From an uncultured delta proteobacterium (GTDB taxonomy: Bacteria > Desulfobacterota > Binatia > UBA9968), in the NCBI GenBank assembly GCA_963804165.1, contig CAWDPO010000024.1:174098-238097 (forward strand): a stretch of 64,000 nt of DNA, given 5' to 3'. This document shows positions 10,663 to 53,318 of this stretch, one piece after another. The notes under the pieces are model-generated. The model was not told where the DNA came from. It saw nothing but the letters and a program-made list of their open reading frames with translations, and did no database searches. Made by a program: the position numbers and the translations under genes. Numbering within the stretch: the first letter of the stretch is position 1; every line of letters starts with the position of its first letter.

Positions 10663-10675
10663 CTTTGAGAAAGAT

Positions 10676-27682: not shown

Positions 27683-27777
27683 GGAGAAGGAAGGTGCCCG
27701 GTGGTGCCGCTGGTCTTCAAAACCAGTCTGGGGGCCGTAAGGTCCCCGGAGGGTTCGACTCCCTCCCTTCTCCGCCA
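27683..27777 (+). tRNA. selC: tRNA-Sec (anticodon UCA)
   Basis: 8-bp acceptor GGAGAAGG/CCTTCTCC, anticodon arm CTGGT-CTTCAAA-ACCAG, long variable arm, GGTTCGACTCC T-loop and encoded GCCA end; 95 nt. Confidence 0.95.
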
Positions 27778-29043: not shown

Positions 29044-29538
29044 TTAGAGCTCGCCTCTGATCTCCGCCAAGAACCACGTCCGCTGCTCGCTCTCGTCGAT
29101 CCAAACCTCGATCAGATTCGCCGCGGCGACATCGTTGTGCCGGTCGCAAACTTCGTGTGCGGCTCGCAAGCTCCGCGTCAATTGCTGGTTGTCCTCGCAC
29201 AACTCGGCGATCATTTCATGCGGGCTCACGCCTTCTTTGTTGTTGTCTTTGAGCCGCTGATTGCGCGCAATATCGCTGATCGAACGAATCGTTGTGCCGC
29301 CGATCTTGCGCGCCCGTTCGGCGATCGTATCCGTCATCGCGAAAATCTGCGTCGCCTGCTCGTCGAGCAGCAAGTGATAATCGCGAAAGTGCCGTCCACT
29401 GATGTGCCAGTGAAAGTTCTTCGTCTTCAAGTAAAGTGCGAATACGTCGGCAAGCATTCTTCGTAAGTTGCTCGAAATTTCCTCGACTGCATCGCCGCCC
29501 AAATCGGACACCCTTCCCTTGTCATTGTTCTCTGTCAT
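29044..29538 (-). CDS. dps: Dps DNA starvation/stationary-phase ferritin-like protein
   Basis: LYLKTKNFHWH.SG.HFRDYHLLLDEQ...DTIAER and EQRTWFL. Confidence 0.93.
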   Translation of the reverse strand: MTENNDKGRVSDLGGDAVEEISSNLRRMLADVFALYLKTKNFHWHISGRHFRDYHLLLDEQATQIFAMTDTIAERARKIGGTTIRSISDIARNQRLKDNNKEGVSPHEMIAELCEDNQQLTRSLRAAHEVCDRHNDVAAANLIEVWIDESEQRTWFLAEIRGEL

Positions 29539-30302: not shown

Positions 30303-30376
30303 ACAACCCCCTCCTCGTTTCGAGACCGCTGCGTTGGAGTAGTCATCTTAGGAGTACTCGCATTCACTCCGCACTC

Positions 30377-31164
30377 CTAAAGCTTTGATCCCCCGTCCAC
30401 CGGAATACTCGCACCAGTGATCCAGCGCGCGCCATCTGACGCCAGGAATACGACTACGTCGGCAACATCTTCCGGTTTGCCGATTCGCTTCAAGGCCTGC
30501 ATCCCAAGCGTGACCTCCCGCCCCGCCTCGGTTTTCGTGAAGTTCGACATGCCCGTATCGATCACGCCTGGCGCGACTGCATTCACGCGAATGCCCTGGG
30601 GCCCGAGCATGGCCGCCCAGTTCTTGACAAGAGTCTCGATTGCTCCTTTGGTCGCCGCGTAGGCAAGGATCGAACGGTTGTCCAAACCGGGTTTGCCAAC
30701 TACGGTGCGGGCCGCGGCAGAAGAGATCACAATAATGTTTGAGCCTTCTCCGAGAATAGGCAGGAGTTGTTGCAGCAGAAAGAATGGACTGCGCACATCG
30801 CAACGAATACCCCGCGGACGTTGATGCCGATCACGCGATCCATCTCATCGAGCGTGGTCTCCTCGAAAGTTTTCGGAATGGCCGTACCGGCATTGTTCAC
30901 AAGCACATCAAGTCGGCCGAAGCTCGCAACGGTCTTTTCGACCGCGGCTTCGACGGCGCCGGCATCAGCGGCGTCCGCCTGGATTGCGATCGCTTTCCGA
31001 CCGGCGCGTTCAATCTCCTTAACGACCGACGCGGCAGCGTCTACACCTTTCGTGTAGGTGATGGCCACGTTCGCTCCGTCCGCGGCCAGACGCTTAGCGA
31101 TTGCGGCACCAATACCGCGCGAGCCGCCAGTAATGAGTGCAATTTTTCCTTCGAGCTTGTTCAT
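30377..31164 (-). pseudogene. chimeric SDR: N-terminal half of one SDR joined out of frame to the C-terminal half of another
   Basis: The first part ends INVRGVFVA. The second begins at the equivalent (N)VRSPFFL and carries YAATK. Confidence 0.6.
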
Positions 31165-31363
31165 GTATTCCTCTCCTCTCATCAAAGCATGTTAGATTGT
31201 GAGGACGACCCTGGGTAACGCCGAGCATCAGCCGCTTCGGCCAGCGGCAAGGTCTTCAACCCCTTCATAACCACTAAATTGTTCCGCTCTCATCGCACGC
31301 ATATTATTAATAGTTCCCCGGTTTTTGTTCGTTGCAGATTCCTAAACATGCAAAGAAGTCAGA

Positions 31364-31859: not shown

Positions 31860-32051
31860 TTATTTCGGTATCTTTTTCTCGAGCGCGAGCGCTTGAGCTT
31901 CTTCTGTTTCCGGCGAGTTCTCAGTGACGCTCCAACGCCGCTTCTCACGCCCTAATGTCCAGGCCGGCGGGTCACTCGCGGGAAAACTGTCCGCCAGTGT
32001 CGCATCAATTATATCTTCTGAAAGTTTCTCATCAATCGAATCATCCGCCAT
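31860..32051 (-). CDS. small acidic protein with SFPASDPP motif
   Basis: MADDSIDEKLSEDIIDATLADSFPASDPPAWTLGRE. I recognise this motif from short hypothetical proteins in many bacteria. Confidence 0.6.
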   Translation of the reverse strand: MADDSIDEKLSEDIIDATLADSFPASDPPAWTLGREKRRWSVTENSPETEEAQALALEKKIPK

Positions 32052-32087
32052 GGGTTTTGCTCCATCTATAGTCATAAAAGCTCGCAA

Positions 32088-32236
32088 CTCGAAATCCAAA
32101 TTCGAAACGAATTCAAATTATCAAGAAGGGCAATGTTCCAAACATGGTAGTTCGGATTAGCGTTTTGGATTTTGGCGGTTCGTGTTTATTTGACTATTGT
32201 TTGTTTCGGATATTCGAATTTCGGCTTTCGAGTTTA
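32088..32236. repeat. heptamer-based inverted repeat element
   Basis: tcgaaatccaaattcgaaac ... gtttcggatattcgaatttcggctttcga. Confidence 0.55.
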
Positions 32237-32279
32237 TTTCTATTTTGGTTTGTTTCGGATCTCCAGTTTCGAGTCTATG

Positions 32280-32890
32280 CTACTCTGTGCGAGATAATCC
32301 CACTTGGTTGCGGCTGAGTCTTCCCGGGCTCCTCGTATCGTTATATGCCATCCACACACTCTTGATGTTCATAAACTCCCGGATGCCGTATTCCGAAAGC
32401 TCCCTTCCATAGCCAGACCGCTTGATACCGCCGAACGGAAGGCGCGGATCGGACATCACGACTTCATTCACAAAAACGGAGCCGGCTTCAATCTGGCGAA
32501 CGATTCGCTCCGCGTGCTCGCAGTCCCGGGTCCAGAGAGATGCACCCAATGCGAACACCGAGTCGTTTGCCAGGCGGATGGCGTCGGCCTCGTCCCGGGC
32601 GCGGATTACCGCCGCCACCGGTCCGAAGGTCTCTTCGTCGAACGCCGGCATCCCTTTGTTGACGGCGGCCACCACCGTGGGCGGATAAAAGGCACCGGGG
32701 CTTTCCGGTATCCGTCCGCCGAGGAGTAGCTTGGCGCCGCGTCTCACTGACTCTTCCACCTGACGGTGCAGCGCCTCCCGCAGGTCGTGGCGCGCTTGTG
32801 GACCGATCTGCGTATCACGGTCAAGCGGGTCACCCATTTTTGGGGAGCGCATCTCTGAGAGGAAAAGTTCCACGAACGGATCCGCGATCT
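32280..32890 (-). pseudogene. gabD: 3' half of split succinate-semialdehyde dehydrogenase
   Basis: IADPFVELF...GDPLD...EETFGPV...PFGGIKRSGYGRELS...EFMNIK; continues 42650..43466 exactly. Confidence 0.85.
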
Positions 32891-33270
32891 AGTAAGGACA
32901 ATAAGCAGCCTAATTCCATTGATGGGTTTGGTTCTCGTCCCGAGGATTTCCGGCTTTTCAAACAGCGACGAAAGCAAGGATCAGAAAGCTAAACGGCGCC
33001 TCTTGCAACCGCATAATCAGCAGGATTCTTGAGCAAGTTGACGCGCAAGACAAGATTTTCAGACTTGTTGGGCTGCTACTTCAGAGGGCACTCGGCGACA
33101 AAGGATAATCCAATATGAGAATTGTAACGGTCAAATTGACTGAATGTCCGGATGGCTTTACTCATTACGCTTGGTTTTGCCCACGCCGGCGCCCCCTTTT
33201 TTGCAGGAGCGAAACTGTCATCACAGGGTCGTCCACCCGCGAGGTATGCTCCGCGCATTGCCTTGGACTG

Positions 33271-34698
33271 TCACTGCTGCCAGCCGCCGCCGAGCGCTCT
33301 GTAGAGCTGAACCAATGACAGCAACTCACCGAGCCGGATCTGAGCCAGGCTCAATTCGGAATTAAACAAGTCGCGGTCAGCATCCAGGGCATTGAGAAGC
33401 GTATCGACTCCGCCCCGGTATCTCATGTAGGCCAGCCGTTTTCGGTCTAGCAACGCTGAAACCAGCAACTCCCGCTGTGCGCGAATTTCTCTGACCCGTT
33501 GGTACTGGACCAGCGCGTTCGAGACATCGCGAAATCCCGCTTGCACCGCCCCTTCGTATTGCGCCAGCGCGCTGCGCTGCTGCGCTTCGGCCAACTGGAC
33601 GCCGGAGGTGATCCGTCCGCCGGCGAAGATAGGCTGGGTAATCTGAGGAATGAAACTCCATATTCTTCTTGAACCGGAGAACAAATTCGCCAGCGCCGTG
33701 CTTTGATAACCGAACTCACCGGTGAGAGTAATCTGCGGGAAATAAGCCGCCTTGGCAACGCCGATAATGGCGTTGGCCGTGATTAAGTTTTGCTCCGCCG
33801 CCTGGATATCCGGGCGCCTCTCCAAAAGGTTCGCCGGCAAACCGGCAGGCACTTCGGGCGGCGTCCGCTGATCCGTTAACAGACGAGTGCGCGATATGGA
33901 GCCGGGATGGCGCCCGAGCAGAAAACTGATTTGATTTTCGGTTTGCTCCAATTGGCGTTCCGCATCGGGTATCGCCTGCGACGCGTCATAAACCAATTGC
34001 TCTCCCTGTCGCACGTCCAAAAGCGTGCCCACCCCGCCCTGCAGTTGAAGCCGGATCAAACGGAGCGATTCTGCTCGCGTGGCCAAAGTGTTTTTTGCGA
34101 TCTCCAATTCCATATCCAGTTCGAGAAGACTGAAATAGGCAGTGGCCACGTCGCTGATCAGGGTCGTGACAACGGCTTTTCGGTTCCAATCCGCAGCCAG
34201 TAAATCGGCGCGTGACGCTTCAGTCGCTCGGCGTAACCGACCCCAAATGTCGATCTCAAAGGAAAAAAGATTGAGGAAGACCGAGCCAAAGGTGCGCTGG
34301 CGGCTGGTTCCCCTAGGGATGGTAAATTGTCCCTGCCGCGATTGCTCGGTCGAGGTAACATCGGCCCCGAGACCAATGTTCGGATACTGATCCGCTTGCG
34401 TAATGCCGAGGTTGGCGCGCGCCGCATCGACGCGCGCGACCGCATCCCGGAGATCGTAATTCTGCAGCATCGCCGTGCGGATCAATTCCTGCAACTGCTC
34501 GTCTTGGAAAACTTCGAACCATTTGAGCTCGGCAATGGATTGCTTGTCGGGAGTTATCGCAGCAGAAGCGCCGCGAAACGAATCCGGCGTTGTCACGGCA
34601 GGCCGCCGATAATCCGGGCCGAGCATGCAGCCGCTCAGAAGCAGGATCAATGCGGCGGCACCGCTCGCGCGCTTTTTCATCTCCGGCTGTCGAATCAT
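33271..34698 (-). CDS. RND efflux outer membrane lipoprotein (OprM/NodT family)
   Basis: LSGC lipobox, FEIDIWGRLR, LLERRPDI..AE and LYRALGGGW. Confidence 0.92.
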   Translation of the reverse strand: MIRQPEMKKRASGAAALILLLSGCMLGPDYRRPAVTTPDSFRGASAAITPDKQSIAELKWFEVFQDEQLQELIRTAMLQNYDLRDAVARVDAARANLGITQADQYPNIGLGADVTSTEQSRQGQFTIPRGTSRQRTFGSVFLNLFSFEIDIWGRLRRATEASRADLLAADWNRKAVVTTLISDVATAYFSLLELDMELEIAKNTLATRAESLRLIRLQLQGGVGTLLDVRQGEQLVYDASQAIPDAERQLEQTENQISFLLGRHPGSISRTRLLTDQRTPPEVPAGLPANLLERRPDIQAAEQNLITANAIIGVAKAAYFPQITLTGEFGYQSTALANLFSGSRRIWSFIPQITQPIFAGGRITSGVQLAEAQQRSALAQYEGAVQAGFRDVSNALVQYQRVREIRAQRELLVSALLDRKRLAYMRYRGGVDTLLNALDADRDLFNSELSLAQIRLGELLSLVQLYRALGGGWQQ

Positions 34699-34709
34699 CG
34701 TTGCCTCCC

Positions 34710-37700
34710 TCAGACCGCTGCCGGTGCGGGCTGCTCTGCGGCCGCCTCATGCTTCTGCCGGCGGCGCGCGAGTCGCTCTATCGCGTAGAACGAAACCGGA
34801 ATGAGTAAGCTCGCGAACAGCGTGTCGAAGGCCATTCCCATGATCACGACGGTGCCCAATATTCGCCGCGCCACGCTTCCCGCCCCCGAAGCGATCCACA
34901 ACGGCACGCATCCTAGAATGAACGCAAGCGATGTCATGAATAATGCCCGACGGCGTATCCTCATTCCTTCCAGCGCCGCGTCGATCAGACTTCGTCCCTT
35001 CTCGAACTCGATCTTCGCGAATTCGACGATCAGGATCGCGTTCTTCGCCGCCAGCCCGATGAGGACAATCAGACCGACTTGCGAGTAGGCATCGAAAGGA
35101 AAATGGCGCAGCCATAAGCCACTGAACGCGCCGAGGACTGCGATCGGAACCGTCAACAGAATTGCGAACGGCAGTGACCAACTCTCATAGAGCGCCGCAA
35201 GAATCAGAAACACAAAAAGCAGCGAAAACCCGAAAATGGCGACTGCGGACACACCCTTGTCTGCGGCCTGCTCCTGGAATGACATGCCCGAGTAGTCGAA
35301 GCCCATTTCCCGCGGCATAGTTTGAGCGAACACTTCTTCCAGCGCCTTCCTGCCCTGGCCGGAACTGTAACCCGGCGCTAGAATGCCGTTGATTTGCGCC
35401 GCCCTGTAACCATTAAAGCGTACCGTAAATTCCGGACCCGACGTCGTTTTCATCGTCACGACCGTCGAGAGGGGTACGGGGTTTCCGTCATTGTTCCGAA
35501 CCCGGAAGAGCCCGACGTTGTCAGCTTCCGTGCGAAATTCTCCTTCTGCCTGCACGTACACCTGCCACACCCGCCCGAAACGGTTGAAATAATTGACAAA
35601 GAGTCCTCCCATGAACGTCTGGAGCGTCTGGTAGACCGAATCCAGATCCACACCCTGTTTGAGGACCTTGTCACGATCGACATTTGCGAAAACTTGCGGC
35701 GCGTTTGGGATAAATGTCGTCGTCAGCGACGCAAACTCCGGCCGCTTGCGCGCCGCCTGAAGGAAGCGATCAGTGTTTTGCGCCAGGAACTCAACGCTCT
35801 GTCCCGATCGATCTTCAAGCATGAATGTCGCGCCGCCAGAGGTGCCGATGCCGGGAATCGCCGGAGGTGAAAACGCAAACACTTGCGCGTCAGGAACTGT
35901 TGCGAGCCGCTGATTGAGATTCCGCAAGATGTTATCAGCGGTCAATCCTGAGCCGCGCTCACCCCACGGCTTGAGCGTGACAAAATAAAATGCGTTGTAG
36001 GTCGTGTTGACAAAGCTCAAAAGGCTGAAGCCGACAATGGTATTGTACGACTGAACGCCCGGAGTCTCTTTGAGAATCGCTTCGATTTTTTTGGCGACAT
36101 CGTCCGTCCGCTGTAATGATGCCGCTGTCGGCAGTTGCACGTTGATGAAAAAGTATCCCTGGTCTTCTTCCGGCAGCAATCCGGTGGGGAGGCGCGAACC
36201 AAAAAAGCCCGCGGCAAGAGCGATCACAACCAGCAACAAAACCGAAAACACTACCTTGTGGAGCAGCACGTCGCTGCCGACGAGATAGACGTGCATGACT
36301 TTGCCAAATCCCGAGTTAAAACGATCGAAGAACCAGCCGAGGAGCCCGCGCGATTGCTTTCCCGGCTTCAGCAGCAGCGCCGCGAGCGCCGGTGAAAGCG
36401 TCAGGGCGTTGAACGCCGAGATCAGAGTCGAGATCGCAATGGTGACGGCGAACTGATTATTGAGTCGCCCTGTGATGCCCCCTACGAATGCGGCCGGTAA
36501 AAAGACCGCGGCGAGAACCAGCGCAATGGCGACCACGGGTCCGGAAACTTCTTCCATCGCTTTGAGCGTCGCATCGCGCGGCGAAAGCCCGTGCTCGATG
36601 TGTTGCTCGACTGCCTCGACGACGACGATCGCGTCGTCGACGACGAGGCCGATGGCGAGAACGAGGCCGAAGAGCGACAGCGTGTTGATCGAGAAACCGA
36701 GCAAGGGAAAAACAGCGAACGTGCCAACCAGCGAAACCGGAACTGCGAGGAGAGGAATCAGAGTGGCCCGCCAGTTCTGCAGGAAGATAAAGACCACGAG
36801 GACGACCAGGATCAACGCCTCGACGAGCGTGTGGACGATCTCGTTGATACCTTCCGATACAGCAAGAGTCGTGTCCAGCGAGATGTTGTAATCGAGGTCC
36901 TCAGGAAACCTGGATTTTAATTCTTCCATCAACTGCTTCGCGCTGTTCATCGTGTCGATCGCGTTGGAGCCTGGAAGCTGGTAGACGGCGATGATTGCGG
37001 CAGGCCTGCCGTTCAGCCGTCCAATCTGGTTGTAGCTCTGCGCGCCGAGCTCTACACGAGCCACATCCTTCATCCGCACAATCGAGCCATCGGGATTGGC
37101 GCGCACCACCACGTCGCCAAATTCCTCGGCGGTCAAGAGACGGCCTTGCGCCCGAACCGTATAGGTGAACTGCTGCCCACGCGGCACAGGCTCCGCGCCG
37201 ATCTGGCCCGCCGGGTTCACCTTGTTTTGGTTCGTTAGCGCCGCGACGATATCACTGACCGTAATACCGAGGCTCGCGAGGGTGTCCGGCCGTACCCAGA
37301 AACGCATCGCGTACTGGCCGGCGCCGAAGATGTTTACCTGCGCAATGCCGGGCACGCGGCTCATCGGATCGTTGATGTTGATGTACGCGTAATTGGCGAG
37401 AAAAGTCGCATCATAGGTTCCCTTGGGCGAGTAGAGAGAGAACAGCGCCAGAGGGCTCGTGGGCGACTTGCGGATCGTGACACCCTGGTTCCGGACGTCA
37501 AGCGGGAGCTGCGATTCGGCCTGAAGGTAACGCATCTGTGTGAGGATTTGGTCGGTGTTTGCGTCTGTGCCGACGTCGAAGTTCACCCTGAGCCGCATCA
37601 GCCCGCTCGCTGCGTTGGTCGAGTTCATGTAGATCATGTTGTCGACGCCCTGCATTTGCTGTTCGATCGGCGTTGCCACCGACTGCTCGACGGTTTCGGC

Positions 37701-37859
37701 ATCGGCACCGACGTAGGTCGCCTGCAAAAAGATTTCCGGCGGCGCGAGCTCGGGGTACTGAGCGATCGGCAGCCGCACGATGCTGACGATGCCGACGATC
37801 ACTATGAGGATGGAAATGACGATCGCAATGATAGGGTGGTAGACGAAGAATTTGGCCAT
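34710..37859 (-). CDS. RND efflux permease, HAE1 (AcrB/BepE) family
   Basis: 1049 aa with [26 protein letters not shown] and [14 protein letters not shown]. Confidence 0.95.
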
Positions 37860-37862
37860 ATT

Positions 37863-39185
37863 CTACCTCGGCTGCGAGTTGGCTGTGGGCGCGGTTTTGT
37901 CTTCGGTCATCGCTTTTAGCGGCTTAGGGTTGACCGGCATGCCTGCCTTCACTTGTTGGATTCCCTCTGCGACAACGTTCTCCCCCGGCTTCAACCCTTC
38001 ATCAATGATCCACTGCGTGCCAACGCGCTCGCCGACTTTAACCGGTCGGATGCTAACCTTGTTATCGTTGCCGACTACCGCCACTTGGTAACTACCTTGC
38101 AGCTCCGTCACCGCGCGCTGGGGAACAAGCAGAGCGTCTTTCTTCGTCGTTGTGATTGCCCTAACGCGGGCGAACTGGCCGGGACGAAGGATATTTCCAG
38201 GATTCGGAAACAGTCCCTCCAGCCGCAGCGTGCCCGTCCTTACATCCACCTGGCGGTCAGCGAAAGAAAAGCTGCCTTTGTTGGGGTAAAGCCTCCCATC
38301 AGCCAAAATCAGCTCCAAGACCAACTTTTTCTCTTGCGCAGCTCGTTTCGCTACATCGGGGTTTTCCCTGATATAGTTGAGGTATCCGCGCTCGCTTACG
38401 GGGAAATAGACCTTGATCGGGTCAAGCGTCGACACAGTCGTGAGGAGAGTGGTCTGGCTCACAAGGTCGCCAATCTGTGCTTGCGCGACGCCGGCAATAC
38501 CGTCAATAAGGGAGACGATTTTGGTAAAGCCCAGATTGAGCTGAGCCGCCTCAACCTGGGCCTTCGCCGCTTCTATTTGAGCTTTGGCCGCCCGGACTGC
38601 AGCCTGGGCGGCGAGATTGGTCTGCACCGCATTGTCGAGAGCCTGTTGGCTCACCGCCTGCTCTTTGGCGAGCGGAATGTAGCGATCCACGTCGAGCTGG
38701 GCCTTGACTTGATTCGCCTCCGCCTGCGCGAGCTGTTGCTCAGCATTGGCGAGCTGCCCTTTGGTTAGATCCAGCGCCGCCTGGAAAGTTCTCGGATCGA
38801 TCTCGAACAGCAACTCTCCTTTTTTAACGAAAGAGCCTTCTTGGTAGGTCCGGCGAATTAGATAGCCCGTCACCTGTGGCCTGATCTGGGCGTTGACCAA
38901 CCCCTCCAACGTGCCGATCCACTCATTCGGGATGGGCACGTCCCTTTGCTCGACCTGCACCACCTCGACTTGTGGCGGTGGCGCTTGCGGTTGCTCGGAT
39001 TTCCCACAGCCGAGTGAACTCAGCAGAATCATACTCGCAATGACCTGCCAGAGACTTGGCCAACGTTTCACGGAAGTGCCTATTTGAGGAAATCTAAAAA
39101 CCGACCACTCATCACTGCGTTTCATGCGCATGTAAATTCGCCACCTTTCATCAATCAGCCGGAGCGTTCCTTCACTCATGGTCAC
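37863..39185 (-). CDS. RND efflux periplasmic adaptor (AcrA family); true start probably downstream of 39185
   Basis: IRPQVTGY, EGSFVKKGELLFEIDP, FPNPGNILRPGQF and VPQRAV. Confidence 0.9.
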   Translation of the reverse strand: MTMSEGTLRLIDERWRIYMRMKRSDEWSVFRFPQIGTSVKRWPSLWQVIASMILLSSLGCGKSEQPQAPPPQVEVVQVEQRDVPIPNEWIGTLEGLVNAQIRPQVTGYLIRRTYQEGSFVKKGELLFEIDPRTFQAALDLTKGQLANAEQQLAQAEANQVKAQLDVDRYIPLAKEQAVSQQALDNAVQTNLAAQAAVRAAKAQIEAAKAQVEAAQLNLGFTKIVSLIDGIAGVAQAQIGDLVSQTTLLTTVSTLDPIKVYFPVSERGYLNYIRENPDVAKRAAQEKKLVLELILADGRLYPNKGSFSFADRQVDVRTGTLRLEGLFPNPGNILRPGQFARVRAITTTKKDALLVPQRAVTELQGSYQVAVVGNDNKVSIRPVKVGERVGTQWIIDEGLKPGENVVAEGIQQVKAGMPVNPKPLKAMTEDKTAPTANSQPR

Positions 39186-39342
39186 AGCCGCAAATCCGTT
39201 CCCGTGATGTCGGAATGCGAGAAATACGACAGTCTCGCGACCTCACCGGTGAGCGCAGTTTTTTTTCGAGCCTTCCCCATCTATTTCTTCTTCGTTCTCT
39301 GCCGCCACTGGTCTCACAGACTCGGCGAATTCCCGGAGCGTA

Positions 39343-40140
39343 TCAGATCGTCGGGATGTTTCCTCCGTCAATGATGTATTCGCTACCGGTGATCGAAGAA
39401 GCTCGGTCGGAAACGAGGAACGCAACCAACTCTGCGACTTCATCGGGGCGGCTGGGGCGGCCGAGCGGAATCCCGCCCAGCGAATTGATCAAACTTTGCC
39501 TCGCGGCAGCTACGTCAGTCCCTGCTTCCGCCGCCAACCGCTCAATCAATGCCTCGGCGGCCTTGGTTTCAGTGAATCCCGGGGCAACACTGTTCACCCG
39601 GACGCCGTGCGGGCCGACTTCCTTGGAGAGTCCTTTGCTGTAATTGGTGAGAGCGGCTTTGGCGGCGGCGTAGCCCAGGGTAGCTTCGAATAAGGGCAGC
39701 GTTCGCTGGATGGAAGAAACATGGAGGATGACGCCGGAGCGTTGCTTCAGCATCGGTGGAAGAAAGCCGCGATCCAGGCGCACCGCCGAAAACAGATTCA
39801 GCTCGAATTCCTGCTGCCAGATTTCATCGTTCAACGCCAGCACACCACCGCCCGGCGCGGAAGAGCCGCCAACGCTGTTGATTAGGATATCGAGGCCGCC
39901 GAGGCGTTCAAAGGTTGTCTTGATGATGTGATCCGCCCCCGCACGTGTGCTGACGTCCGCTTGAATGAACCCTTCGGGATTGGCGCCTGCAAGAATATTT
40001 CTAGCGGTACTGAGCACCGTCCCACCGCCCCTTATTAGACGGCTCACGACGGCCTCGCCAATTCCTCTGGTGCCGCCCGTGACCAGAATTCGCTTGCCAG
40101 AGAATTCGTTTGCGTCGTATGGGACGTTGGATGCGCTCAT
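39343..40140 (-). CDS. SDR oxidoreductase
   Basis: [13 protein letters not shown] and RVNSVAPG. Confidence 0.88.
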
Positions 40141-40237
40141 AGGTGCCCCTCCTCGCTCGCGTTCCTACTGCGGCCTGCTAATGGTCATCACCACATTCCG
40201 TTAAATTCACCCCAACCCTCTGTTTGCGGCGATTACG

Positions 40238-41735
40238 TCAACTCGGCACGCCGTTGATAAAATCGAGGATTGCCGGAATCACCGTCTGGGATGCTTCTTC
40301 CATCAGCCAATGACCCACGCCCGCGACAACCTGACCTCGGACATCGGATGCCACCAGCGTGGCTTGTTCGATGAGAAAGTTGCCGCTGGCCTTTTCGCCA
40401 GTTAGCACCATCACCGGCATTGCGAGACGGCTCGCGCCCAGCTGGGCGAAATCCTGCGCGTCGCGTTCGAGATTGCGGAAATACTCGAAGCCGGCGCGCA
40501 TGCCGCCGGGCTGCGAGTAGGCCTGCGCATAGATACAGCGATCGGCCTCCGGTACCGAGTGTTTCGGATCGGCGGCGAAGTCGTTCCAAAAGTGTTCGAA
40601 GTAGGTCCGCTCGCGCCCGTGGACCAGTGCGAGCGGCACATTGCCGTGGAAGTGAAAATGCCACAGGTCGCGCAGCAGCCAAACGTCTTTCCAGTTCCCG
40701 ATGCCAGGGAGAAACGCGTCCATCAGCACCACGCGCTCGGTAGACTGCGGAAACTGCGCCGCGAACGCGTAAGCGACCATCAATCCGATGTCGTGGCCGA
40801 CGATGCTGACGCGATCCAATCCTAACGAGGCGGTCAAATCGTGGATGTCGACGGCCATATTCTTCTTGTCATAGCCGCCCTCCGGCTTGGACGATCCACC
40901 AGCGCCGCGCAGATCGGGAACGATGACGGTGTGACGCTCGGCGAGCAACGGCATGATCGGCTGCCACATGTGACTGGTTTCGGCGTAACCGTGCAGTAAA
41001 ACCACCGGGCTACCTTTACCATGAAATAGCGCAGTCTAACTCCGTTGACCTCGGCGAAGCGTTCGGCAAAAGCGGAATCGACTGTGGCGACCTCGGCCCT
41101 ATGGGGAGAAGATGGCGTCGGCAATGCGGCGAGCAGTTCTTCAGTCACGAGAATCGCATGCGCGAACGTCGGTCCGTTCAGCTCGTGCGCCGCGTGCATC
41201 ATCTCGCGGCTGAACGCCGCCGTTGCGTCCTCACCAACGTGACGTGATAACCAAGCTCCATCGCGAAGCGGGACGTCGACTCGATGCAAGTATTTGCGAG
41301 TAGACCGATCACGATGACGTTTTCTATGTCATGCTGTTTGAGCTGCTGATCGAGATCGGTGTTGGCGAAGCCGCTCTGGGCCCAATGCTCCTTGATGATG
41401 ACGTCGCCTTCGTGGGGTGCGAAGTCCGGATGCCATTCACCGCCCCAGGTTCCTTTGGCAAAGGTTTGCCGTTTACCCGAAGCAATCTGGCTCGGGTTCG
41501 CGTGTTTCCATTTGACGTAATCACCGGGTTCCCAGCGATGATGCGGCACGATGAAGATCTGAATCTTTGCAGCACGCGCTGCTGCAACGATCTGGCGCAA
41601 GTGATCGAGGAGGTGTTCTTCCTCGGCGATATCTTTGAGCAAGGGCCAAAGCTTGCCACCTTCGCTGAGAAAATCATTGTACGGATCGACGAGCAGCAGA
41701 CCGGTGGTGTCTGAAGAATAGTTGGTTGTAGTCAT
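40238..41735 (-). CDS. probable fusion of isochorismatase-family cysteine hydrolase and epoxide-hydrolase-like alpha/beta hydrolase (frameshifts near 41230 and 41020)
   Basis: VDPYNDF, K..AQSGF and ANTCIEST, then an open linker into NGVRLRY, LLHGY, VGHDIG and GHWLMEE. Confidence 0.65.
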
Positions 41736-41804
41736 GTGATTCTCCGAGGCCCCATCATGTCGGTTTTGCAATGAGCAGCGCCGCTCCTTATTCCTAGATC
41801 ACCT

Positions 41805-42497
41805 AGGCCGCCAAATCGAACACAAGAACTTCAGCGTGATCGAGACCTTTGACCTCGAAGATGCTTTCTTGACCGATAGCGGCGCCATCGCCTGCACCAA
41901 GCGCGGTTCCATTCAGAGTTACAGTTCCGCGCGCGGCCAAGCAGCCCGGCCGCGCTTTAAAGAATAACTAATGGCGTGACCTTGAGGCAGAACGGCAAGC
42001 GAGATCTCAGCATCCTGATGGACCTTGACCGCTCCATCGCGCGCATCCGGCGCGGCGACGAGAACCAAGCTCCCACTAGTTTTCTCGAGCTCGAACGAGC
42101 GTTGTTCATATCCTGGCTTCAATCCCGATTGATTGGGCAGGATCCAGATCTGCAGAAAGTGTACCGGCTCGGTTTGCGATGCGTTGTATTCGCTGTGGCT
42201 GATTCCTGTTCCCGCGCTCATGCGCTGAACGTCCCCGACCCGAATGACCGAGCTCGTTCCCGTGCTGTCTTTGTGCGCCAGCGCGCCTTCCAGGACATAG
42301 GTGATGATTTCCATGTCGCGATGCGAATGAGTCGGAAATCCCGCGCCCGGGGTGACTCGATCTTCATTGATAACTCTAAGATCGCTGAAACCCATGTGTT
42401 GCGGATCGCGGTAATCGCCGAAGGAAAAACTATGGCGGCTGTCGAGCCAGTTGAATCTCGTACGTCCCCTTTCATCGCCATGGCGCACGGTGATCAT
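41805..42497 (-). CDS. pirin family protein (YhhW-like), frameshift near 41930
   Basis: [36 protein letters not shown] and FLQIWI. Confidence 0.88.
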
Positions 42498-42649
42498 TTT
42501 GCCTCCTTATTCGCCGGCTGAAATAAAATCCGCGACAACCGGCGGTCGCTCACCGATGTGAAAGCCTACACTTCTTCGGCCTCGTGATCCGCCACCGTGA
42601 CCCGCTCTTGCTTGCGCATGTACTCCGCCCGGGATCTCCTTGTTTCCTT

Positions 42650-43466
42650 TGTCGACGACGATGAAGCGCTTAGCAGCGATACAGCTCTGCCCGCTGTTAA
42701 TCAGGCGCGCCTCTGCCGCCATCTTCGCCGCTTTCTTAAGATCAGCGTCCCCGAGGACAATGAACGGGTCGCTCCCCCCTAGCTCGAGCACGGTTTTCTT
42801 GAGCTCACGGCCCGCCTGCTCTGCCACCTTGCTCCCGGCGCGATCGCTGCCGGTTAAGGTGACTGCCCGAATACGCGGATCCGCAATTATGGTGGGGACG
42901 CGATCGGTCGCCACGAGGGCCACGCGGAAGAGGCCCTCTGGAAACCCGGCCTCGCGAAAGACTTCCTCAATCTGAAGCGCGCAGCGCGGAACGTTGGAGG
43001 CATGCTTCAGGATTCCGGCGTTACCCGCCATGAGCGCTGGAGCGGCGAAGCGAAAGACCTGCCAGAAGGGAAAGTTCCAAGGCATGATGGCCAGCACCGG
43101 CCCGATGGGTTCGAACCGTACATAGCTGCGGGAAGCGTCGGTTTGTCGAGGCTCGTCCGCAAGAAAAGCCTCGGCGTGCTCAGCGTAATAGTCACAGACC
43201 CACGCGCACTTCTCCACTTCCGCTTCACCCTGGACAATCGGTTTCCCCATCTCGAGGGCCATGGTCCTTGCATACTTTTCCCTGTTGGTTCTCAGAATGC
43301 GGGCCGCTTCGCGCATCTTTTTTGCGCGATCCGCGAATGGACGGCTATGCCAGTCGCGAAACATCGTGTGTGCGGCTTCCAGAATCCGATCGATTTCGCT
43401 TGTTGTCGTTTCCTGAAAACTCTCCAAGACTTCACCCGTGGCTGGATTGATGGATTGGATGCTCAT
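42650..43466 (-). pseudogene. gabD: 5' half of split succinate-semialdehyde dehydrogenase
   Basis: SINPATGE, IMPWNFPFWQ, LTGSDRAG, LELGGSDPF and GQSCIAAKRFIVVDK, then unrelated sequence. Confidence 0.85.
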
Positions 43467-43481: not shown

Positions 43482-45131
43482 TCAAATAGGGCAGACCCAA
43501 GCCCCCAATTTTTCGGTCAGCCTCAAGTTCTCACTATAGTCAACGGGGCAAGCCACCACCGCCGGCACCCGCTGGCGGAACGCCTCATCGAGGATCCGCA
43601 GAAGCTCCCCTGCGACGCTAACCCGGTATCCCTTGCACCCAAAGGACTCGGCCAGGGCGACAAAGTCCGGGTTACTGAAATTTACGAAGGCGGGCCGCCC
43701 GTAGCGCTTTAGCTGCTTCCATTTAATTACGCCGTAACCCAAGTCCTCGAAAATGAGTGCGACAAAACTCGTCCCTGCCCGAACGGCCGTCTCCAGTTCG
43801 TGCGCGGTCATAAGGAATCCCCCGTCACCGCAGGCCGCCAGCACGCGCCGCTCTGGATAGAGGAGCTTAGCGCCGATCGCTCCAGGGAGGGCAATTCCCA
43901 TGCTGGCAAACCCGTTGGAGATGATACAGGTGTTGGGGCGAGCGCACCCATACATACGCGCAATCCAAAGTTTGTGTGCGCCGACATCGCTAATCAGGAT
44001 GTCATTTTCGCCTAGTACTTCTCTTAGGGCACGGACCACCTGCTGCGGCTTCAGAGGGAACGCGTCACCCTCAGCCTCGGCGCGAAACTCCTTTTGGATA
44101 ATCTCTTTTAGCGCGCCGGCACCGCGGCTCGAGCCGGAATCCGCACGCGCCGAGGCGCGTTGTGCAATTCGCGTCAGCGATTCGGCAATCTGCCCTTGGA
44201 CACCGACGGCTACCTGATAGGCAGCGTCCACCTCGGCCGGCGATGGATCGATGTGCACGATGCGCTTGTCCTGCCTCGGATTCCACCGTTCCGGCGCGTA
44301 CTCGACGAGGTCGTAGCCGACGCAGATGATCACGTCTGCCCGATCGAGCCCACATGAAACGTAATCGTGCTCCTGGAGACCCACGGTCCCCAAACACAGC
44401 GCGTGCGCGTCGGGGACGCTCCCTTTTCCCATGAATGTTTCCACCACCGGGATGCCGAGCGTATCAATGAAATGGCGGAGAGCGTCGCTCGCACGGCCTC
44501 GCGCCACCCCATTACCGGCGAGGACGAGGGGATCTCGCGCCTCCGAAATGATCTTCGCTGCCCGCACAATCTGCTGGTCAAGAGGTTCAGTCGGAAAAGC
44601 TTGTTGCGGCAACAGCGGCTCAAGACCCGAGGGCGTCTCCGCATCCGCCACATCTTCAGGGAGGTCTAGATGAGTAGCCCCCGGCTTCTCTGTCTGCGCT
44701 ACCTTGAAGGCCTTGCGCACCGCTTCCGGCACAACCTGAGGGCGGACGAGCTGCGCGTTCCACTTCACCGCCGGTCGATAGAGCGAGATCAGGTCGAGAT
44801 ACTGATGCGACTCCTTATGAAAACGCTCGGTCCCTGCCTGCGCAGTGATCGCGACGAGAGGTGCCCGGTCCATGTTCGCATCGGCGACGCCCGTTAGCAG
44901 ATTCGTTGCACCTGGGCCGAGGGTCGCGAGGCAAACGCTCGCCTTCCCGGTGAGCCGGCCCTGGACGTCGGCCATGAAAGCCGCGCCCTGCTCGTGGCGC
45001 GTCTGGAGAAAGCGAATTTTGGAATCAAGAATGGCCTCCAGCACGGCGAGGTTCTCTTCGCCTGGCACGCCGAACATGTGCTCGAGCCGCTCGTTCTCGA
45101 GACAGCGGACTAAGAGCTCTGCTCCTGTCAT
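43482..45131 (-). CDS. acetolactate synthase large subunit-like TPP enzyme
   Basis: FGVPGEEN, RHEQGAAF, LGPGATN, SDVGAHK and GDGGF. Confidence 0.88.
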   Translation of the reverse strand: MTGAELLVRCLENERLEHMFGVPGEENLAVLEAILDSKIRFLQTRHEQGAAFMADVQGRLTGKASVCLATLGPGATNLLTGVADANMDRAPLVAITAQAGTERFHKESHQYLDLISLYRPAVKWNAQLVRPQVVPEAVRKAFKVAQTEKPGATHLDLPEDVADAETPSGLEPLLPQQAFPTEPLDQQIVRAAKIISEARDPLVLAGNGVARGRASDALRHFIDTLGIPVVETFMGKGSVPDAHALCLGTVGLQEHDYVSCGLDRADVIICVGYDLVEYAPERWNPRQDKRIVHIDPSPAEVDAAYQVAVGVQGQIAESLTRIAQRASARADSGSSRGAGALKEIIQKEFRAEAEGDAFPLKPQQVVRALREVLGENDILISDVGAHKLWIARMYGCARPNTCIISNGFASMGIALPGAIGAKLLYPERRVLAACGDGGFLMTAHELETAVRAGTSFVALIFEDLGYGVIKWKQLKRYGRPAFVNFSNPDFVALAESFGCKGYRVSVAGELLRILDEAFRQRVPAVVACPVDYSENLRLTEKLGAWVCPI

Positions 45132-45205
45132 GCTTCATCTCCCTTCGTGGGGAAAGAACTGTGTACCTCGATCAACTCTCTCATGTAGCGTTATCGTCGC
45201 GATGT

Positions 45206-45451
45206 TCACTTCTTTCCGTATTTTTTCTTGAAACGATCGATGCGACCTCCCGTATCGAGAACACGCTGTTTTCCAGTGAAGAATGGATGCGACGCCGATG
45301 ATATCTCAAGCCTTATCAGCGGATAGCTCTTGCCGTCTTTCCACTTGATGGTCTCTTTTGAATCCATCGTTGATGTTCCAAGAAAGGAAAAATCTGAAGA
45401 GATGTCTTTAAAAACAACCTGACGAACCTTCGGATGAATATTTTTTCTCAT
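45206..45451 (-). CDS. rpmE2: 50S ribosomal protein L31 type B
   Basis: MRKNIHP...VFKD...[28 protein letters not shown]; no CxxC. Confidence 0.93.
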
Positions 45452-45499: not shown

Positions 45500-47567
45500 T
45501 CAAATACCCGCAAAAAACATGACCACCGAGCGCGCCTCGGCGCGGTAGGAGTAGCCGGGAACCGATTCTGCGGTCTCCCAAGATAGGATGTCGTGCGGGG
45601 AGTCAAGGGCTGTGTCGATCCAGCGGCGCCATGCAGTTTCACTCGTGTTTTTCACCTGCGGCAGCTCGAAATCGAGCGCCTCCCAATAAGCGTTCAAGAT
45701 CATGTGAAAGAGCATCTTTTCTCTCCGGATTTCCATGGTGAACGCAACGCTGTGGGAAAACTCGCCCCAGTCGGGCTGGCTCAGTTTCACGCCGTGCCAG
45801 ACTACGTTGGCTCTGCGGAGGAGCTGGCACAAGCTTACGCGCTGGCCATCGGTTTCCAAGTCTCGTAAGAGGCGTCGCGTATTGAGCAGAGTCACGAACC
45901 GATGAACATCTGCGTGCTTCGCGAGTAGCGTCCAGTCGAACCAACTGGTTTCGTTGTCCTGGCAGTAGGCATTATTGTTGCCGTATTGTGTGTGCCGCGC
46001 TTCGTCACCCATGAGAAACATGGGCAGACCCGCAGACAACATCGTTACGGCCAAAAAGTTCTTCACCTGCCGGTTTCTGAGCTTTTCCACAGCGGGATCA
46101 TCGGTGGGACCTTCGACGCCGCAGTTCCAGCTCCGATTGTCGTTGGCGCCGTCGCGATTGTTTTCGCCATTCGCTTCATTGTGCTTTTGGTCATAAGAGA
46201 CGAGGTCGTTCAATGTAAAGCCGTCATGACACGTCACATAGTTAACACTTTGCTCAGCCTCGCGTTCTTCATGAGCGTAAATTGCGGGGCTACCGAGCAA
46301 GCGGTCAGCAAACCGTCCGACAGACCCGTCTTCCCCACGGAAAAAACTCCGCACGTCATCGCGGAACCGCCCATTCCATTCCTTCCAACAATCGCCGATG
46401 AAGCTGCCTACCTGGTAGAGGCCGGTCGCATCCCACGCCTCCGCGATGAGCTTGGTGCCGGCGAGCACAGGATCCGATTCAATGTCCCACAATACAGGCG
46501 GGTTCGGGATCAATTGGCCTGACTCATCCCGCCCGAGGATCGCCGCCAGATCGAATCGGAAGCCGTCCACGTGCATCTCCTCGACCCAATAACGAAGGCT
46601 GTCGACGATCATTCGGCGAACGATCGGTTGATTAGCGCTGAGCGTATTGCCGGTGCCGCTGTAATCGGCATAGCGTGCGCGGTCCTTGTCGAGAATGTAA
46701 TAAGTGCTGTTGTCCAAGCCACGCAAACTCAAGGTCGGGCCATTATGGTCGCCTTCTGCTGTGTGGTTGAACACAACGTCGAGAATAACCTCGATACCTG
46801 CCCGGTGCAGCGCCTTGACCATATCGCGGAACTCATCGATCGGTCCGAGCGAGTCTCGGCGCGAACTGTACGCCTGGTGCGGCGCAAAAAATGAGACCGG
46901 CGCATAGCCCCAGTAGTTGACCAGCCCCAGCGGGGAATCCTGAGGGTCAAACTGAAACACCGGCATCAGTTCGACTGCCGTTACACCGAGCTCGTGCAGG
47001 TACGGGATTTTCTCGATCAGCCCCGCAAAGGTGCCGCGTGTTTGCTCCGCGACACAGGAACTCGGATGACTCGTAAAGCCGCGCACATGCATTTCATAGA
47101 TGATAGTCCGGGACGAGGACCGGTTGAGCGGCATGTCGCCTTCCCAGTCGTACGCACATGGATCCACCACAACACTCTTCATCGCCGTCGCGCAATTGTC
47201 GCCTTCCTTCTGGGCCGCCTCGCGACTGTAATTCTTCGGAACAACGGTGCCGCGTCCATATGGATCCAGGAGGACCTTGGCGACGATCGAACCGCATTCC
47301 ACTCGAAAGATCGTATGGCCCCTCAGCTCGATAGCCGTAGATCTGCCCCGCTCTCACGCCCGGCACGAATACATGCCAGTAGTGATACGTGCGGTTGGTT
47401 GAAGCATCGATGCGGATCACACGTGCAGGCGCGGCGTCATCGACGCAATCAAAGAGGAGGAGCTCGACTGCCGTTGCATGCTTTGAGTAGACGCTAAAGT
47501 TTGCCCCTTCAACAGAAAGTGTCGCTCCGAGAGGAGAACTCCGGCCTTCGGTGGTTTCTTGTGTCAC
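45500..47567 (-). CDS. glgX: glycogen debranching enzyme (isoamylase), frameshift near 47285
   Basis: PLGAT, IIYEMHVRGF, NYWGY, DVVFNHT, DGFRFDLA and CHDGFTL. Confidence 0.92.
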
Positions 47568-47781: not shown

Positions 47782-47823
47782 ATTCTATTCTCCTATTGTC
47801 GTTGCGGATCTGCCGCGTACCAT

Positions 47824-52264: not shown

Positions 52265-52274
52265 ATCTTGCTCC

Positions 52275-53297
52275 TCATTTGGTGGGTTTTTCCAGGTGCC
52301 CGCCGAACTCATAGCGCATCGCCGAGAGCAGTTTATCCGCGAAATCTGCTTCGCCGCGCGAGCTAAAGCGCTCATACAGAGCGGCACTCAGGACATGAGC
52401 GGGCACGGACTCGTCGATGGCCGCCTTAATGGTCCAGCGCCCTTCGCCGGAATCGGAGACACGCCCTGCGAACTTCGATAGGGCCGGATCCGCAACCAGG
52501 GCGGTCGCAGTTAGATCCAGCAGCCACGATGCGATTACGCTGCCGCGACGCCAGACCTCCGCGATATCAGGCAGATTGAGGTCGTATTGATAATGCTCAG
52601 GGTTGCGTAACGGCGTCGTCTCGGCATCCATCTCATGTGTTTGCTTTCCTACGTTGGCGCTATGCAGCACTCCCAGCCCCTCGGCATAAGCGGCCATGAT
52701 GCCGTACTCGATCCCGTTGTGAACCATTTTGACAAAGTGGCCGGCACCGTTTGGCCCGCAATGCAGATAACCTTGCTCCGCCGTGCCGCCAGCCTTTTCA
52801 CGCCTGGGTGTGCGCGGGATATCGCCTCCGCCGGGAGCCAAGGTCGCAAAGATTGGATCGAGGTGCTTGACTACGTTCTGCTCGCCGCCAATCATCATGC
52901 AGTAACCGCGCTCCAGCCCCCAAACCCCACCGCTCGTCCCCACGTCTATATAATGGATGCCTTTCGAGGCGAGTTCCCTCGCACGCCGGATATCGTCAAT
53001 GTAATAGGAGTTGCCGCCATCGATTAGGATGTCCTCCGTCTCAAGATGAGGCAGGAGATCTGCGATACTCTGATCCACGACCGCTGCCGGAACCATCAAC
53101 CAGACGGCCCGCGGCTTTGTAAGCTTCTTCACAAAATCGGCTAGCGAGGATGAGCCAACAGCCTTTTCCGCAGCCAGCTCCTCAACCGCTTTTAGCGATC
53201 TGTCGAAGACCACGCATTGATGGCCTCCTTTAAGTAATCGCCGCGCCATGTTCGCGCCCATTCTGCCAAGACCAATCATTCCGATTTGCATACTCAA
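52275..53297 (-). CDS. gnd: 6-phosphogluconate dehydrogenase (short, YqeC type)
   Basis: [29 protein letters not shown] and DSGEGRWT. Confidence 0.95.
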
Positions 53298-53318
53298 CTC
53301 CTCTTTCCGCGTGTTTTT

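Follow-up and report, generated by a model that had tools for sequence, protein, structure and literature searches.

Background

The skin element in sigK of Bacillus and the nifD and fdxN elements of Anabaena interrupt genes and excise to restore them; they encode their own site-specific recombinase and are bordered by short direct repeats. Elements of the IS91/ISCR and IS200/IS605 groups insert without target duplication, feature a transposase or defined subterminal hairpins, and are present in multiple copies.

Kilobase-sized insertions are also described where chromosomal breaks have been healed. In Streptomyces ambofaciens, five endogenous fragments ranging from 30 bp to 18.8 kb were inserted at break-healing sites (PMC5869714), and in Sinorhizobium meliloti non-homologous end joining (NHEJ) captured DNA into a chromosomal break (PMC6379672). 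Among the events described in these two reports, the inserted DNA sometimes originates from near the break. A 2-oxoglutarate decarboxylase/succinate-semialdehyde dehydrogenase (SSADH) bypass of the TCA cycle is, in turn, outlined for cyanobacteria (PMC10418658).

The locus presented here lies in a 64-kb window (the whole stretch of DNA which was analysed, whose positions are used throughout) of the assembly G000, from an uncultured soil-type bacterium, and consists of an SSADH gene whose two parts are separated by an insert of 9,759 bp (32891-42649). As in the sigK, nifD and fdxN elements, a multi-kilobase insert occupies a coding sequence and its precise removal would rebuild the frame; unlike in those elements, the insert carries no recombinase and at most 1 nt is shared between its borders. 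The absence of a target-site duplication recalls IS91/ISCR and IS200/IS605, and such transposases are encoded elsewhere in G000, but the insert lacks a transposase, hairpins and extra copies. The closest resemblance is to the Ku/LigD captures of Streptomyces and S. meliloti (PMC5869714, PMC6379672), with which the locus shares a kilobase insert without mobility gene, derived from the cell's own genome, little or no junction homology, and a host genome encoding Ku and LigD. The events described there were nuclease-induced in the laboratory, whereas this one is natural, known from one assembly and lossless for its target, with Ku/LigD presumably involved. As in the cyanobacterial bypass, a Sad-type SSADH adjoins a thiamine-diphosphate enzyme of the acetolactate synthase (ALS) family, 55-58% identical to its counterpart at 11 cyanobacterial loci; here, the ALS-like enzyme has a putative substrate, and the order is reversed, with the ALS-like gene first instead of the SSADH gene.

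Two complementary halves of one SSADH gene

The interrupted gene is represented by two features:

42650..43466, minus strand: SSADH 5' part, codons 1-272 plus one base, with the ELGG and GQSCIAAKR motifs
32280..32890, minus strand: SSADH 3' part, two bases plus codons 274-475 and the stop

In the sequence, the 5' half runs from an ATG at 43466 to GTCGTCGACA at 42650, and the 3' half begins with AGATCGCGGATCC at 32890 and reaches its stop at 32280. The frame of the 5' half continues into the insert up to a stop at 42507, which results in a chimeric ORF of 319 aa. Residues 3-277 of this ORF correspond to positions 9-284 of the Pfam Aldedh profile (length 461); positions 281-461 are covered by residues 1-178 of the 3' piece. 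Similarly, the NCBIfam model NF006915 (NADP-SSADH) is covered from 1 to 273 at 382 bits by the 5' half and from 277 to 457 at 219 bits by the 3' half, the summed bits falling under its cut-off of 730, which is meant for whole proteins. Taken as two halves, the split gene matches the full-length ALDH fold and the SSADH equivalog model; among proteins of solved structure, it is closest to the SSADH chains 4it9 and 3vz1. The translated 5' half contains ELGG and GQSCIAAKR, and the 3' half EETFGP, so that the motifs of the catalytic Cys and Glu are present.

When joined, the halves (817 and 611 nt) encode 475 aa with a single terminal stop. Alignments of this protein to 15 homologs, picked from 80 loci, are free of gaps at the junction in all 15 cases. 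Identities of the 5' and 3' halves are matched, at 72.1/71.4% for L013, 68.0/65.2% for L014 and 69.9/67.9% for L015, and the same homolog is the best one for either half (about 72/71%). One of the 15 (L030) has a divergent C-terminal half of its own, at 23.8%. The two pieces are complementary halves of one Sad-type SSADH. The initial annotation had described an aldehyde dehydrogenase gene split exactly and with nothing lost, and the complementary profile coverage and gapless alignments bear this out. Its complete protein of about 475 aa is correct for the joined frame but not for the native protein, of about 454 aa: in the alignment to L123 the original stop, a TAG there, is a TAT at 32343-32345, and because of this lost stop the last 21 codons of the 3' part are read-through. 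The SSADH gene is inactivated, its 5' part ending in the chimeric ORF.

Flanking genes and the uninterrupted site in relatives

Four features of the flanks are relevant for the comparison with other genomes:

43482..45131, minus strand: ALS-family thiamine-diphosphate enzyme, 549 aa, intact (Pfam TPP_enzyme_N/M/C), upstream partner of the split gene
32076..32240, no strand assigned: MITE-like repeat, within about 230 nt absent from L123, just 3' of the SSADH gene
31872..32057, minus strand: small conserved ORF, 62 aa, found after the SSADH gene in L123 and L120 (60% aa identity over 63 residues)
29044..29538, minus strand: Dps/ferritin-like gene (Pfam Ferritin), used as a linkage marker

The metagenome contigs L123, L120 and L124 contain an uninterrupted SSADH gene, 80-82% identical at the amino acid and 78-81% at the nucleotide level. 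In L123 it is preceded by an ALS-like gene, whose product is 84% identical to that of the window, and in both L123 and L120 it is followed by the small ORF, which matched no Pfam or NCBIfam family. Because the uninterrupted gene is found together with the same flanking genes, the empty site exists among relatives; the intact ALS-gabD arrangement which the initial annotation had proposed to look for is therefore present, with the ALS-like neighbour in L123. The ALS-like gene matches NCBIfam NF006187 at 749 bits (cut-off 509) and the best NCBIfam model for the enzyme bears the name acetolactate synthase; its product is likely a 2-oxoglutarate decarboxylase. The MITE-like repeat has many matches of 70-81% across the genus, and four matches in G000 including the window's own copy. 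An island integrated at the tRNA-Sec gene (27683-27777) was considered and rejected, as neither a repeat of its 3' end nor an integrase was found in the window.

Gene content and ends of the insert

All genes of the insert have the same orientation as the host SSADH gene:

42507..42649, minus strand: remnant of an MFS transporter gene at the left insert end, last ~45 codons, decayed, with a 4-nt deletion
41919..42497, minus strand: pirin gene, 192-aa ORF (Pfam Pirin, Pirin_C_2), C-terminus out of frame
40238..41771, minus strand: isochorismatase/alpha-beta hydrolase fusion (Pfam), read here in more than one frame
39343..40140, minus strand: short-chain dehydrogenase, SDR (Pfam adh_short; NCBIfam NF005095)
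33271..39185, minus strand: RND efflux operon, with adaptor (37863-39185), permease (34710-37859) and outer-membrane factor (33271-34698) (Pfam, NCBIfam)
32891..33270, minus strand: gene-free spacer of 380 nt at the right insert end

The ORFs and Pfam matches agree with the pirin, double hydrolase, SDR and RND pump initially reported, and the 3' tail of another ORF, with which the insert had been said to begin, can now be assigned to an MFS transporter gene. The latter is intact in G043 (C58:8202-9836, 544 aa). In an alignment with the intact genes of G043 and G046, a paralog of G000 on C42 and the remnant of G018, a deletion of 6-7 nt and the word GAGATSCC are common to the window and G018 remnants and absent from all three intact genes; the remnant is older than the insertion event. 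At the opposite end, the 380-nt spacer occurs once in G000 and has no match at E < 0.001 in 30 other genomes of the genus.

Native origin of the insert and linkage in sister genomes

Both the insert and the flanks resemble sister genomes to a similar extent, the insert being 83-89% identical. The stretch from pirin to hydrolase is 83% identical at the nucleotide level to G043 and G003, the RND operon 88-89% to G003:C5:1-5881 and G043:C58:14181-20068, with the similarity starting exactly at the stop of the outer-membrane factor, and the conserved flank segments 84-91% to G043. The G+C content of the insert also resembles that of the flanks. The insert is therefore the bacterium's own DNA. Its parts occur in relatives as ordinary chromosomal genes, in varying combinations and in no unit with fixed ends; for example, the isochorismatase/hydrolase fusion is a single ORF of 500 aa in G043 (C58:10619-12121).

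Two relatives place the block close to what now flanks it. In G018 the order is Dps, 1.75 kb, MFS remnant and pirin, with a pirin protein 93% and a Dps gene (C14:887288-887811) 86% identical at the nucleotide level to those of the window, in which Dps is found beyond the other side of the insert. In G043:C58, the block is about 32-37 kb away from four segments which belong to the left flank in the window. The link between Dps and pirin is solid in G018 only, a Dps match in G012:C224 covering just 68 nt. Another contig of that genome, G012:C52, has Dps at one end and a 93% match to 45205-45401 at the other, and was rejected as a case of synteny, as the 18 kb in between consist of unrelated genes.

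Searches of G000 revealed no donor site or scar. The sole counterpart of the intact MFS gene of G043 is the paralog on C42, at 65%; the MOSC and isochorismatase genes which lie between Dps and the MFS remnant in G018 have only 37-41% matches elsewhere; and nothing informative was matched by the spacer of G018, by the 380-nt spacer or by the 211 nt that follow Dps. The state before the event is not displayed by any close relative (>95% identity).

Probable capture of a neighbouring segment by end joining

The explanation we favour, and consider fairly probable, is that the SSADH gene was broken and received a neighbouring segment in a single event of illegitimate end joining. A double-strand break would have arisen inside the gene and been healed by illegitimate, homology-independent end joining, with a 9.76-kb piece of the neighbouring own chromosome ligated into it. 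Equivalently, three breaks within about 15 kb may have been rejoined with two adjacent segments swapped. The genes from pirin to the RND pump now follow the promoter of the ALS-like gene and share its strand.

The junctions at the SSADH gene are blunt, with an overlap of 0-1 nt and no target duplication, and the insert lacks element ends, as end joining would predict. Two Ku-LigD loci are present in G000, each with a Ku gene (C25:15218-15745, C40:192988-193539) beside a LigD Prim-Pol domain (C25:18693-19454, C40:190246-191004); a third such domain is found on C27. The illegitimate block translocation preferred by the initial annotation is thus strengthened by the MFS tail, the native insert, the neighbourhood in sister genomes and the minimal overlap, while the shared core of 1-2 nt (A or AG) it had allowed for is reduced to at most 1 nt, with no core of 2 nt or more. 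The exact split, the native insert, the missing transposon signature and the Ku and LigD genes are observed; that end joining was the agent, that a single event was involved and that the insert derives from adjacent DNA is what we infer, the first from the anatomy of the junctions, which would look much alike after replicative template switching. For end joining, by which ends are often trimmed, it is unusually clean that both junctions are blunt and the target has lost nothing. As G000 is 81% complete, another copy of the block may also have escaped assembly.

A replication-based or multi-step origin without break capture, through template switching (FoSTeS/MMBIR-like), nested inversions, or deletions after a tandem duplication, is rather unlikely. 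Gene order in the genus is shuffled at a scale of 2-10 kb, truncated genes are common, and in G018 the block adjoins the Dps side, all of which would suit such a history. Duplication and deletion, or several inversions, would nevertheless have to reuse the same nucleotide of the SSADH gene twice to leave exact halves, microhomology on that side does not exceed 1 nt, and both the block and the SSADH gene are single-copy in the assembly.

It is improbable that the split is an assembly artefact, in which a mixed-strain join, chimeric reads or a wrong path united what was never on one molecule. A misjoin creates one breakpoint; it does not create an insertion after which the gene resumes in frame at the nucleotide directly following; moreover, neither junction contains a repeat capable of misleading an assembler, and no other contig has a copy of block or gene. 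In favour of an artefact, G000 looks like a metagenome bin (46 contigs, 81% complete, 5% contamination), and multi-frame genes, namely a transketolase (47785-49829), a debranching enzyme (45500-47567) and an SDR (30348-31185), follow a pattern also seen in relatives which suggests an indel-prone consensus. The split is known from one assembly, with no read or independent contig behind either junction: the best public sequencing run contained a fraction of 0.14 of the sampled words, and four public runs covered only pieces of the pump genes of relatives (90-99% alike) and not the locus. Among the contigs from these four runs, none crossed a junction and none connected 42650 to 32890, which weighs neither in favour of the junctions nor against them. 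Repeat collapse was rejected separately, given the lack of a second block copy in G000.

Very unlikely, in our assessment, is a non-autonomous cargo block moved in trans without target duplication, perhaps reversibly, by an HUH Y1/Y2 transposase, a serine recombinase or another enzyme, so that excision would restore the gene as in the sigK or nifD intervening elements. In favour of such a block, the gene is divided with nucleotide precision and without target duplication, the genes of the block are all oriented like the host gene, and G000 has 18 Y1_Tnp and 11 Y2_Tnp (IS91-type) matches elsewhere. Yet the block lacks defined termini, ending in the decayed remnant of a gene on one side and in a unique spacer on the other, and relatives hold its parts as ordinary genes. 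The absence of transposase, integrase and terminal repeats noted initially holds: a scan of 59 ORFs over the whole window yielded no member of a transposase or integrase family, and the insert ends showed neither terminal inverted or direct repeats nor subterminal hairpins, with only weak folds at both ends. The end sequences had no matches beyond chance hits of 12-19 nt and are not multi-copy. A DDE or composite transposon is contradicted by the missing transposase gene and terminal repeat pair and the 0-1 nt target overlap; an HUH element (IS200/IS605, IS91) by the single-copy block without hairpins or defined ends; an intervening element, island or prophage by the lack of an integrase or recombinase and of an att-type repeat of at least 2 nt. 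The lost stop codon and the adjacent MITE-like insertion look like decay and not like a maintained switch. The precisely excising element with a trans-acting recombinase, which the initial annotation had offered as an alternative, gained no support, as a shared core of 2 nt or more, repeats, hairpins and further copies were all absent. A circular element opened within the SSADH gene and then integrated was discarded, since its topology would place the halves at the outer ends and not facing inward. Least credible of all is a new kind of non-autonomous cargo element moving in and out with nucleotide precision, with no target duplication, terminal repeats or enzyme of its own, and driven in trans, for example by one of the many Y1/Y2 HUH transposases of the genome or by another recombinase. 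Such an element would switch the 2-oxoglutarate bypass reversibly and, at the same time, put an efflux pump under a metabolic promoter.

Significance for annotation and genome evolution

The split gene is most likely a tidy but fairly ordinary rearrangement, a break-and-rejoin accident instead of a mobile element. If the junctions hold, the end-joining capture would be a clean natural example of how bacteria with Ku and LigD patch a break with kilobases of their own DNA, so far known from induced breaks in the laboratory. One such event can kill a gene, rewire an operon and give rise to a chimeric ORF; in this case, an RND pump cluster sits behind the promoter of a metabolic operon. The locus would also illustrate how shuffled gene order and gene remnants may build up without transposons in large soil genomes. 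For annotation, it serves as a warning that a gene "split by cargo" does not necessarily indicate a mobile element.

The genus as a whole is fluid, which also favours the end-joining reading: gene fragments and shuffled order are common, and contig C73 of G043, for example, contains an ALDH fragment which abuts an ALS-like gene.

A succinate-semialdehyde dehydrogenase gene in two exact halves

Within the assembly, the aldehyde dehydrogenase (ALDH) gene, a Sad-type succinate-semialdehyde dehydrogenase (SSADH), is truly and exactly split. The features concerned are as follows (w, window coordinates).

Features at the split gene
w43482-45131, minus strand: ALS-family gene upstream of ALDH (749 bits to model NF006187, acetolactate synthase large subunit; cut-off 509)
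w42650-43466, minus strand: ALDH 5' half, directly after the ALS-family gene, from ATG at w43466 to ...TTCATCGTCGTCGACA at w42650
w32891-42649: insert of 9,759 nt; in transcription order, a 143-nt gene remnant, pirin, hydrolase fusion, SDR, RND adaptor/permease/outer-membrane factor and 380 gene-free nt
w40238-41771: isochorismatase / alpha-beta hydrolase fusion within the insert, in several frames here and a single 500-aa ORF in the sister genome G043
w32280-32890, minus strand: ALDH 3' half, AGATCGCGGATCCGTTCGTGGAA... from w32890 to the stop at w32280

The two pieces are halves of one gene with no part missing, and chance is excluded, since they cover complementary parts of the profiles, align without gaps once joined, and share nearest relatives at matched identities. 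Pfam Aldedh (461 positions) is covered at 9-284 by the 5' piece and at 281-461 by the 3' piece, and NCBIfam NF006915 (NADP-dependent succinic semialdehyde dehydrogenase, 457 positions) at 1-273 and 277-457. Joined by script, the pieces (817 + 611 nt) give 475 codons and a single terminal stop, and the product is gap-free across the junction against all 15 homologs aligned, chosen from a set of 80 loci; the initial annotation, which had read an exact split with an in-frame product of ~475 aa and no loss, was thus correct. Identities of the 5' and 3' halves to the same nearest relatives are 72.1/71.4% (L013), 68.0/65.2% (L014) and 69.9/67.9% (L015); one of the 15 homologs, L030, has a divergent C-terminal half of its own (23.8%). 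Among solved structures, those of succinate-semialdehyde dehydrogenases stand nearest to the 5' half (4it9, 3vz1, then Sad 8qmq).

Comparison with L123, a metagenome contig carrying an uninterrupted ALDH, shows apparent decay beyond the split: the TAG stop codon of L123 is replaced by TAT (w32343-32345), and ~230 nt absent from L123 follow the window gene and contain a MITE-like repeat. This repeat (w32076-32240, ~160 nt, inverted ends) has dozens of matches of 70-81% genus-wide, and four matches in the host assembly, window copy included.

The ALS-like partner gene

Among the closest ALDH relatives, an ALS-like gene lies directly beside ALDH in 18 of 80 genome loci; 11 of these 18 are cyanobacterial, with ALS-like genes 55-58% identical to that of the window. 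A cyanobacterial study describes a ThDP-dependent 2-oxoglutarate decarboxylase which, together with SSADH, converts 2-oxoglutarate to succinate by a bypass route (PMC10418658), and by analogy the window pair is a putative 2-oxoglutarate bypass module. The pair is rare in the genus, for which the tallies include the unpublished genome G005. The best protein match to the ALDH 5' half among 40 relatives (24 from the same genus) is 35% identical, and among 30 other genus genomes an ALDH homolog is recognisable at the DNA level only on contig C73 of G043 (L109, 16405-19012). It retains only residues 1-303 (62% aa), is frameshifted at about residue 42 and lies immediately next to an ALS-like gene (50% aa), in a gene order opposite to that of the window. 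Between the ALS-like gene and a debranching enzyme, the spacer (w45205-45401) is 93% identical to the final 196 nt of contig C52 of sister genome G012, which has a Dps ortholog at its start and 18 kb of unrelated sequence in between.

Empty site and junctions

A query of 23 nt, taken from the end of the ALDH 5' half, retrieved 30 loci from metagenome contigs, all of which encode ALDH relatives; the reading frame continues across the site in all 11 of the 30 that were inspected. The closest known relatives (L123, L120 and L124; 78-82% aa, 78-81% nt) all carry the gene uninterrupted, and an empty site therefore exists in contigs from relatives. In L123 the same ALS-like gene (84% aa) precedes ALDH, so that the intact ALS-gabD locus which the initial annotation proposed as a comparison is found; in L123 and L120 the same small ORF, at w31872-32057 in the window, comes after ALDH. 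At the insertion site L123 reads GTCGTCGAC AAA GTC GAA, and the two window junctions read GTCGACAAAG|GAAAC and CTTACTAG|ATCGCG, respectively. Homology common to both junctions is 0 or 1 nt for either possible lost codon (AAA or AAG); of the shared core of at most 1-2 nt (A or AG) previously suggested, the lower value fits and 2 nt is not borne out. Neither target duplication nor deletion is seen when the window junctions are compared with L123.

Content and local origin of the insert

Pirin, a double hydrolase, an SDR and a full RND pump, all named in the initial annotation, are present by Pfam/NCBIfam, and the ORF tail which it saw opening the insert derives from an MFS transporter gene (3' end), which is intact at 8202-9836 of G043 contig C58 (544 aa, ending ...ESWAEHMRQHERVTVADHEAEEVSRAFHIGDQPPVVAHFIAAND). 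The window remnant has a 4-nt deletion; moreover, it shares with the remnant in sister genome G018 a 6-7-nt deletion and the word GAGATSCC, both absent from the intact MFS genes of G043 and G046 and from the paralog on host contig C42. These common changes indicate that the MFS gene decayed before the rearrangement, so the break point would have fallen inside an already-decayed gene. Upstream of pirin the remnant (w42498-42640; L105 9418-9560; L103 9709-9836) is preserved at 80-90% identity in G018, the gene itself being lost, and it may now serve as pirin promoter or leader.

The insert is native DNA. The RND pump operon shares 88-89% identity with G003:C5 and G043:C58, and the pirin-to-hydrolase part 83% with G043:C58; conserved segments of the window left flank are 84-91% identical to G043, comparable to the insert, and G+C does not differ from the flanks. 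The 380-nt end has no match at E < 0.001 in 30 other genus genomes.

A local origin is indicated by the linkage of Dps and pirin in G018, and by the block and left flank lying together on G043:C58. The order in G018 is Dps, MOSC, isochorismatase, MFS remnant and pirin, with 1.75 kb from Dps to pirin, and the window Dps ortholog (w29044-29538, 86% nt) lies ~3.7 kb past the opposite end of the insert. G043:C58 holds the block at 9709-20068 and four left-flank segments at 51896-57193. On G012:C224 a 68-nt Dps match lies ~4.7 kb from pirin, a weaker pointer to the same origin. The block thus probably remains in its former neighbourhood, the change being in the order of two adjacent segments. No donor scar was found with the G043 MFS gene, the G018 MOSC and isochorismatase genes and spacers as queries. 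Another truncated gene lies near Dps, an MlaC-like ORF (w28061-28393, 110 aa) covering only profile positions 3-74 of 166.

Mechanism and alternatives

Illegitimate translocation, favoured in the initial annotation, gains support from the 0-1 nt overlap, the lack of element signatures and the linkage, and narrows to a short-range move of native DNA by illegitimate end joining, which we consider reasonably probable. A single break in the SSADH gene would suffice at the target, because the halves are exactly complementary; either a nearby native fragment would have been captured at the break, or three breaks would have been rejoined with two segments swapped. End joining fits the blunt junctions, the ends at random points in ordinary DNA and the local origin. 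The host assembly has two Ku genes, each adjoined by a LigD polymerase domain. Among the results reported for Streptomyces ambofaciens are five own-DNA insertions of 30 bp to 18.8 kb at break-healing sites, two short ones among the five deriving from near the break (PMC5869714); in Sinorhizobium meliloti, a chromosomal break was shown to take up a DNA cassette in a Ku/LigD-dependent manner (PMC6379672). The event type is already known, and the SSADH split is a further instance.

As a consequence of such a move, SSADH would be inactivated with the ALS-like gene still intact, the ALDH 5' part would continue into the MFS remnant as a 319-aa chimeric ORF, and the promoter of the ALS-like gene would now have the pirin-to-pump genes downstream of it in the same orientation.

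Replication-based or multi-step routes are unlikely; if a duplication were followed by deletion, or inversions were nested, the same ALDH nucleotide would have to be hit twice. Slightly less likely still is an assembly artefact, in which the split would not exist as one molecule. No public sequencing run was found to contain the locus. The host assembly resembles a metagenome bin (46 contigs; completeness 81%, contamination 5%), and the many genes in several frames, in the window and in relatives alike, suggest an indel-prone consensus; yet a misjoin would not pick the gene up again at its very next nucleotide, and neither junction has repeats. The multi-frame window genes (2-3 frames) are transketolase (w47785-49829), debranching enzyme (w45500-47567), SDR (w30348-31185) and the hydrolase fusion. 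Other genes are affected likewise in G043, G003 and G018, a pattern pointing to consensus indel errors rather than pseudogenes.

A reversible element mobilised in trans is highly improbable and has no positive support. A scan of 59 ORFs spanning the 64-kb window gave no transposase or integrase, as the initial annotation had noted for the insert, nor any recombinase family, and the insert has neither terminal inverted or direct repeats nor convincing end hairpins. No second copy of the block, its ends or ALDH occurs in the host assembly, where HUH transposases (18 Y1 and 11 Y2 matches elsewhere) have no tie to the block that could be found. The tRNA-Sec 3' end is not repeated anywhere in the window; this gene (w27683-27777; ARAGORN; Rfam RF01852) lies 1.3 kb from Dps and has matches of 86-100% identity in five sister genomes, in other contexts.

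Other features of the window

A 78-nt repeat (w49984-50061), neither tRNA nor Rfam family, has very many copies of 85-98% identity in sister genomes, with dozens in G012, often near contig ends. Another short repeat, of ~85 nt (w14852-14935), is present in sister genomes in many copies of 80-89% identity. Two DUF3891 paralogs (w18941-19786 and w26595-27476), less than 8 kb apart, flank a xanthine-dehydrogenase-type cluster.
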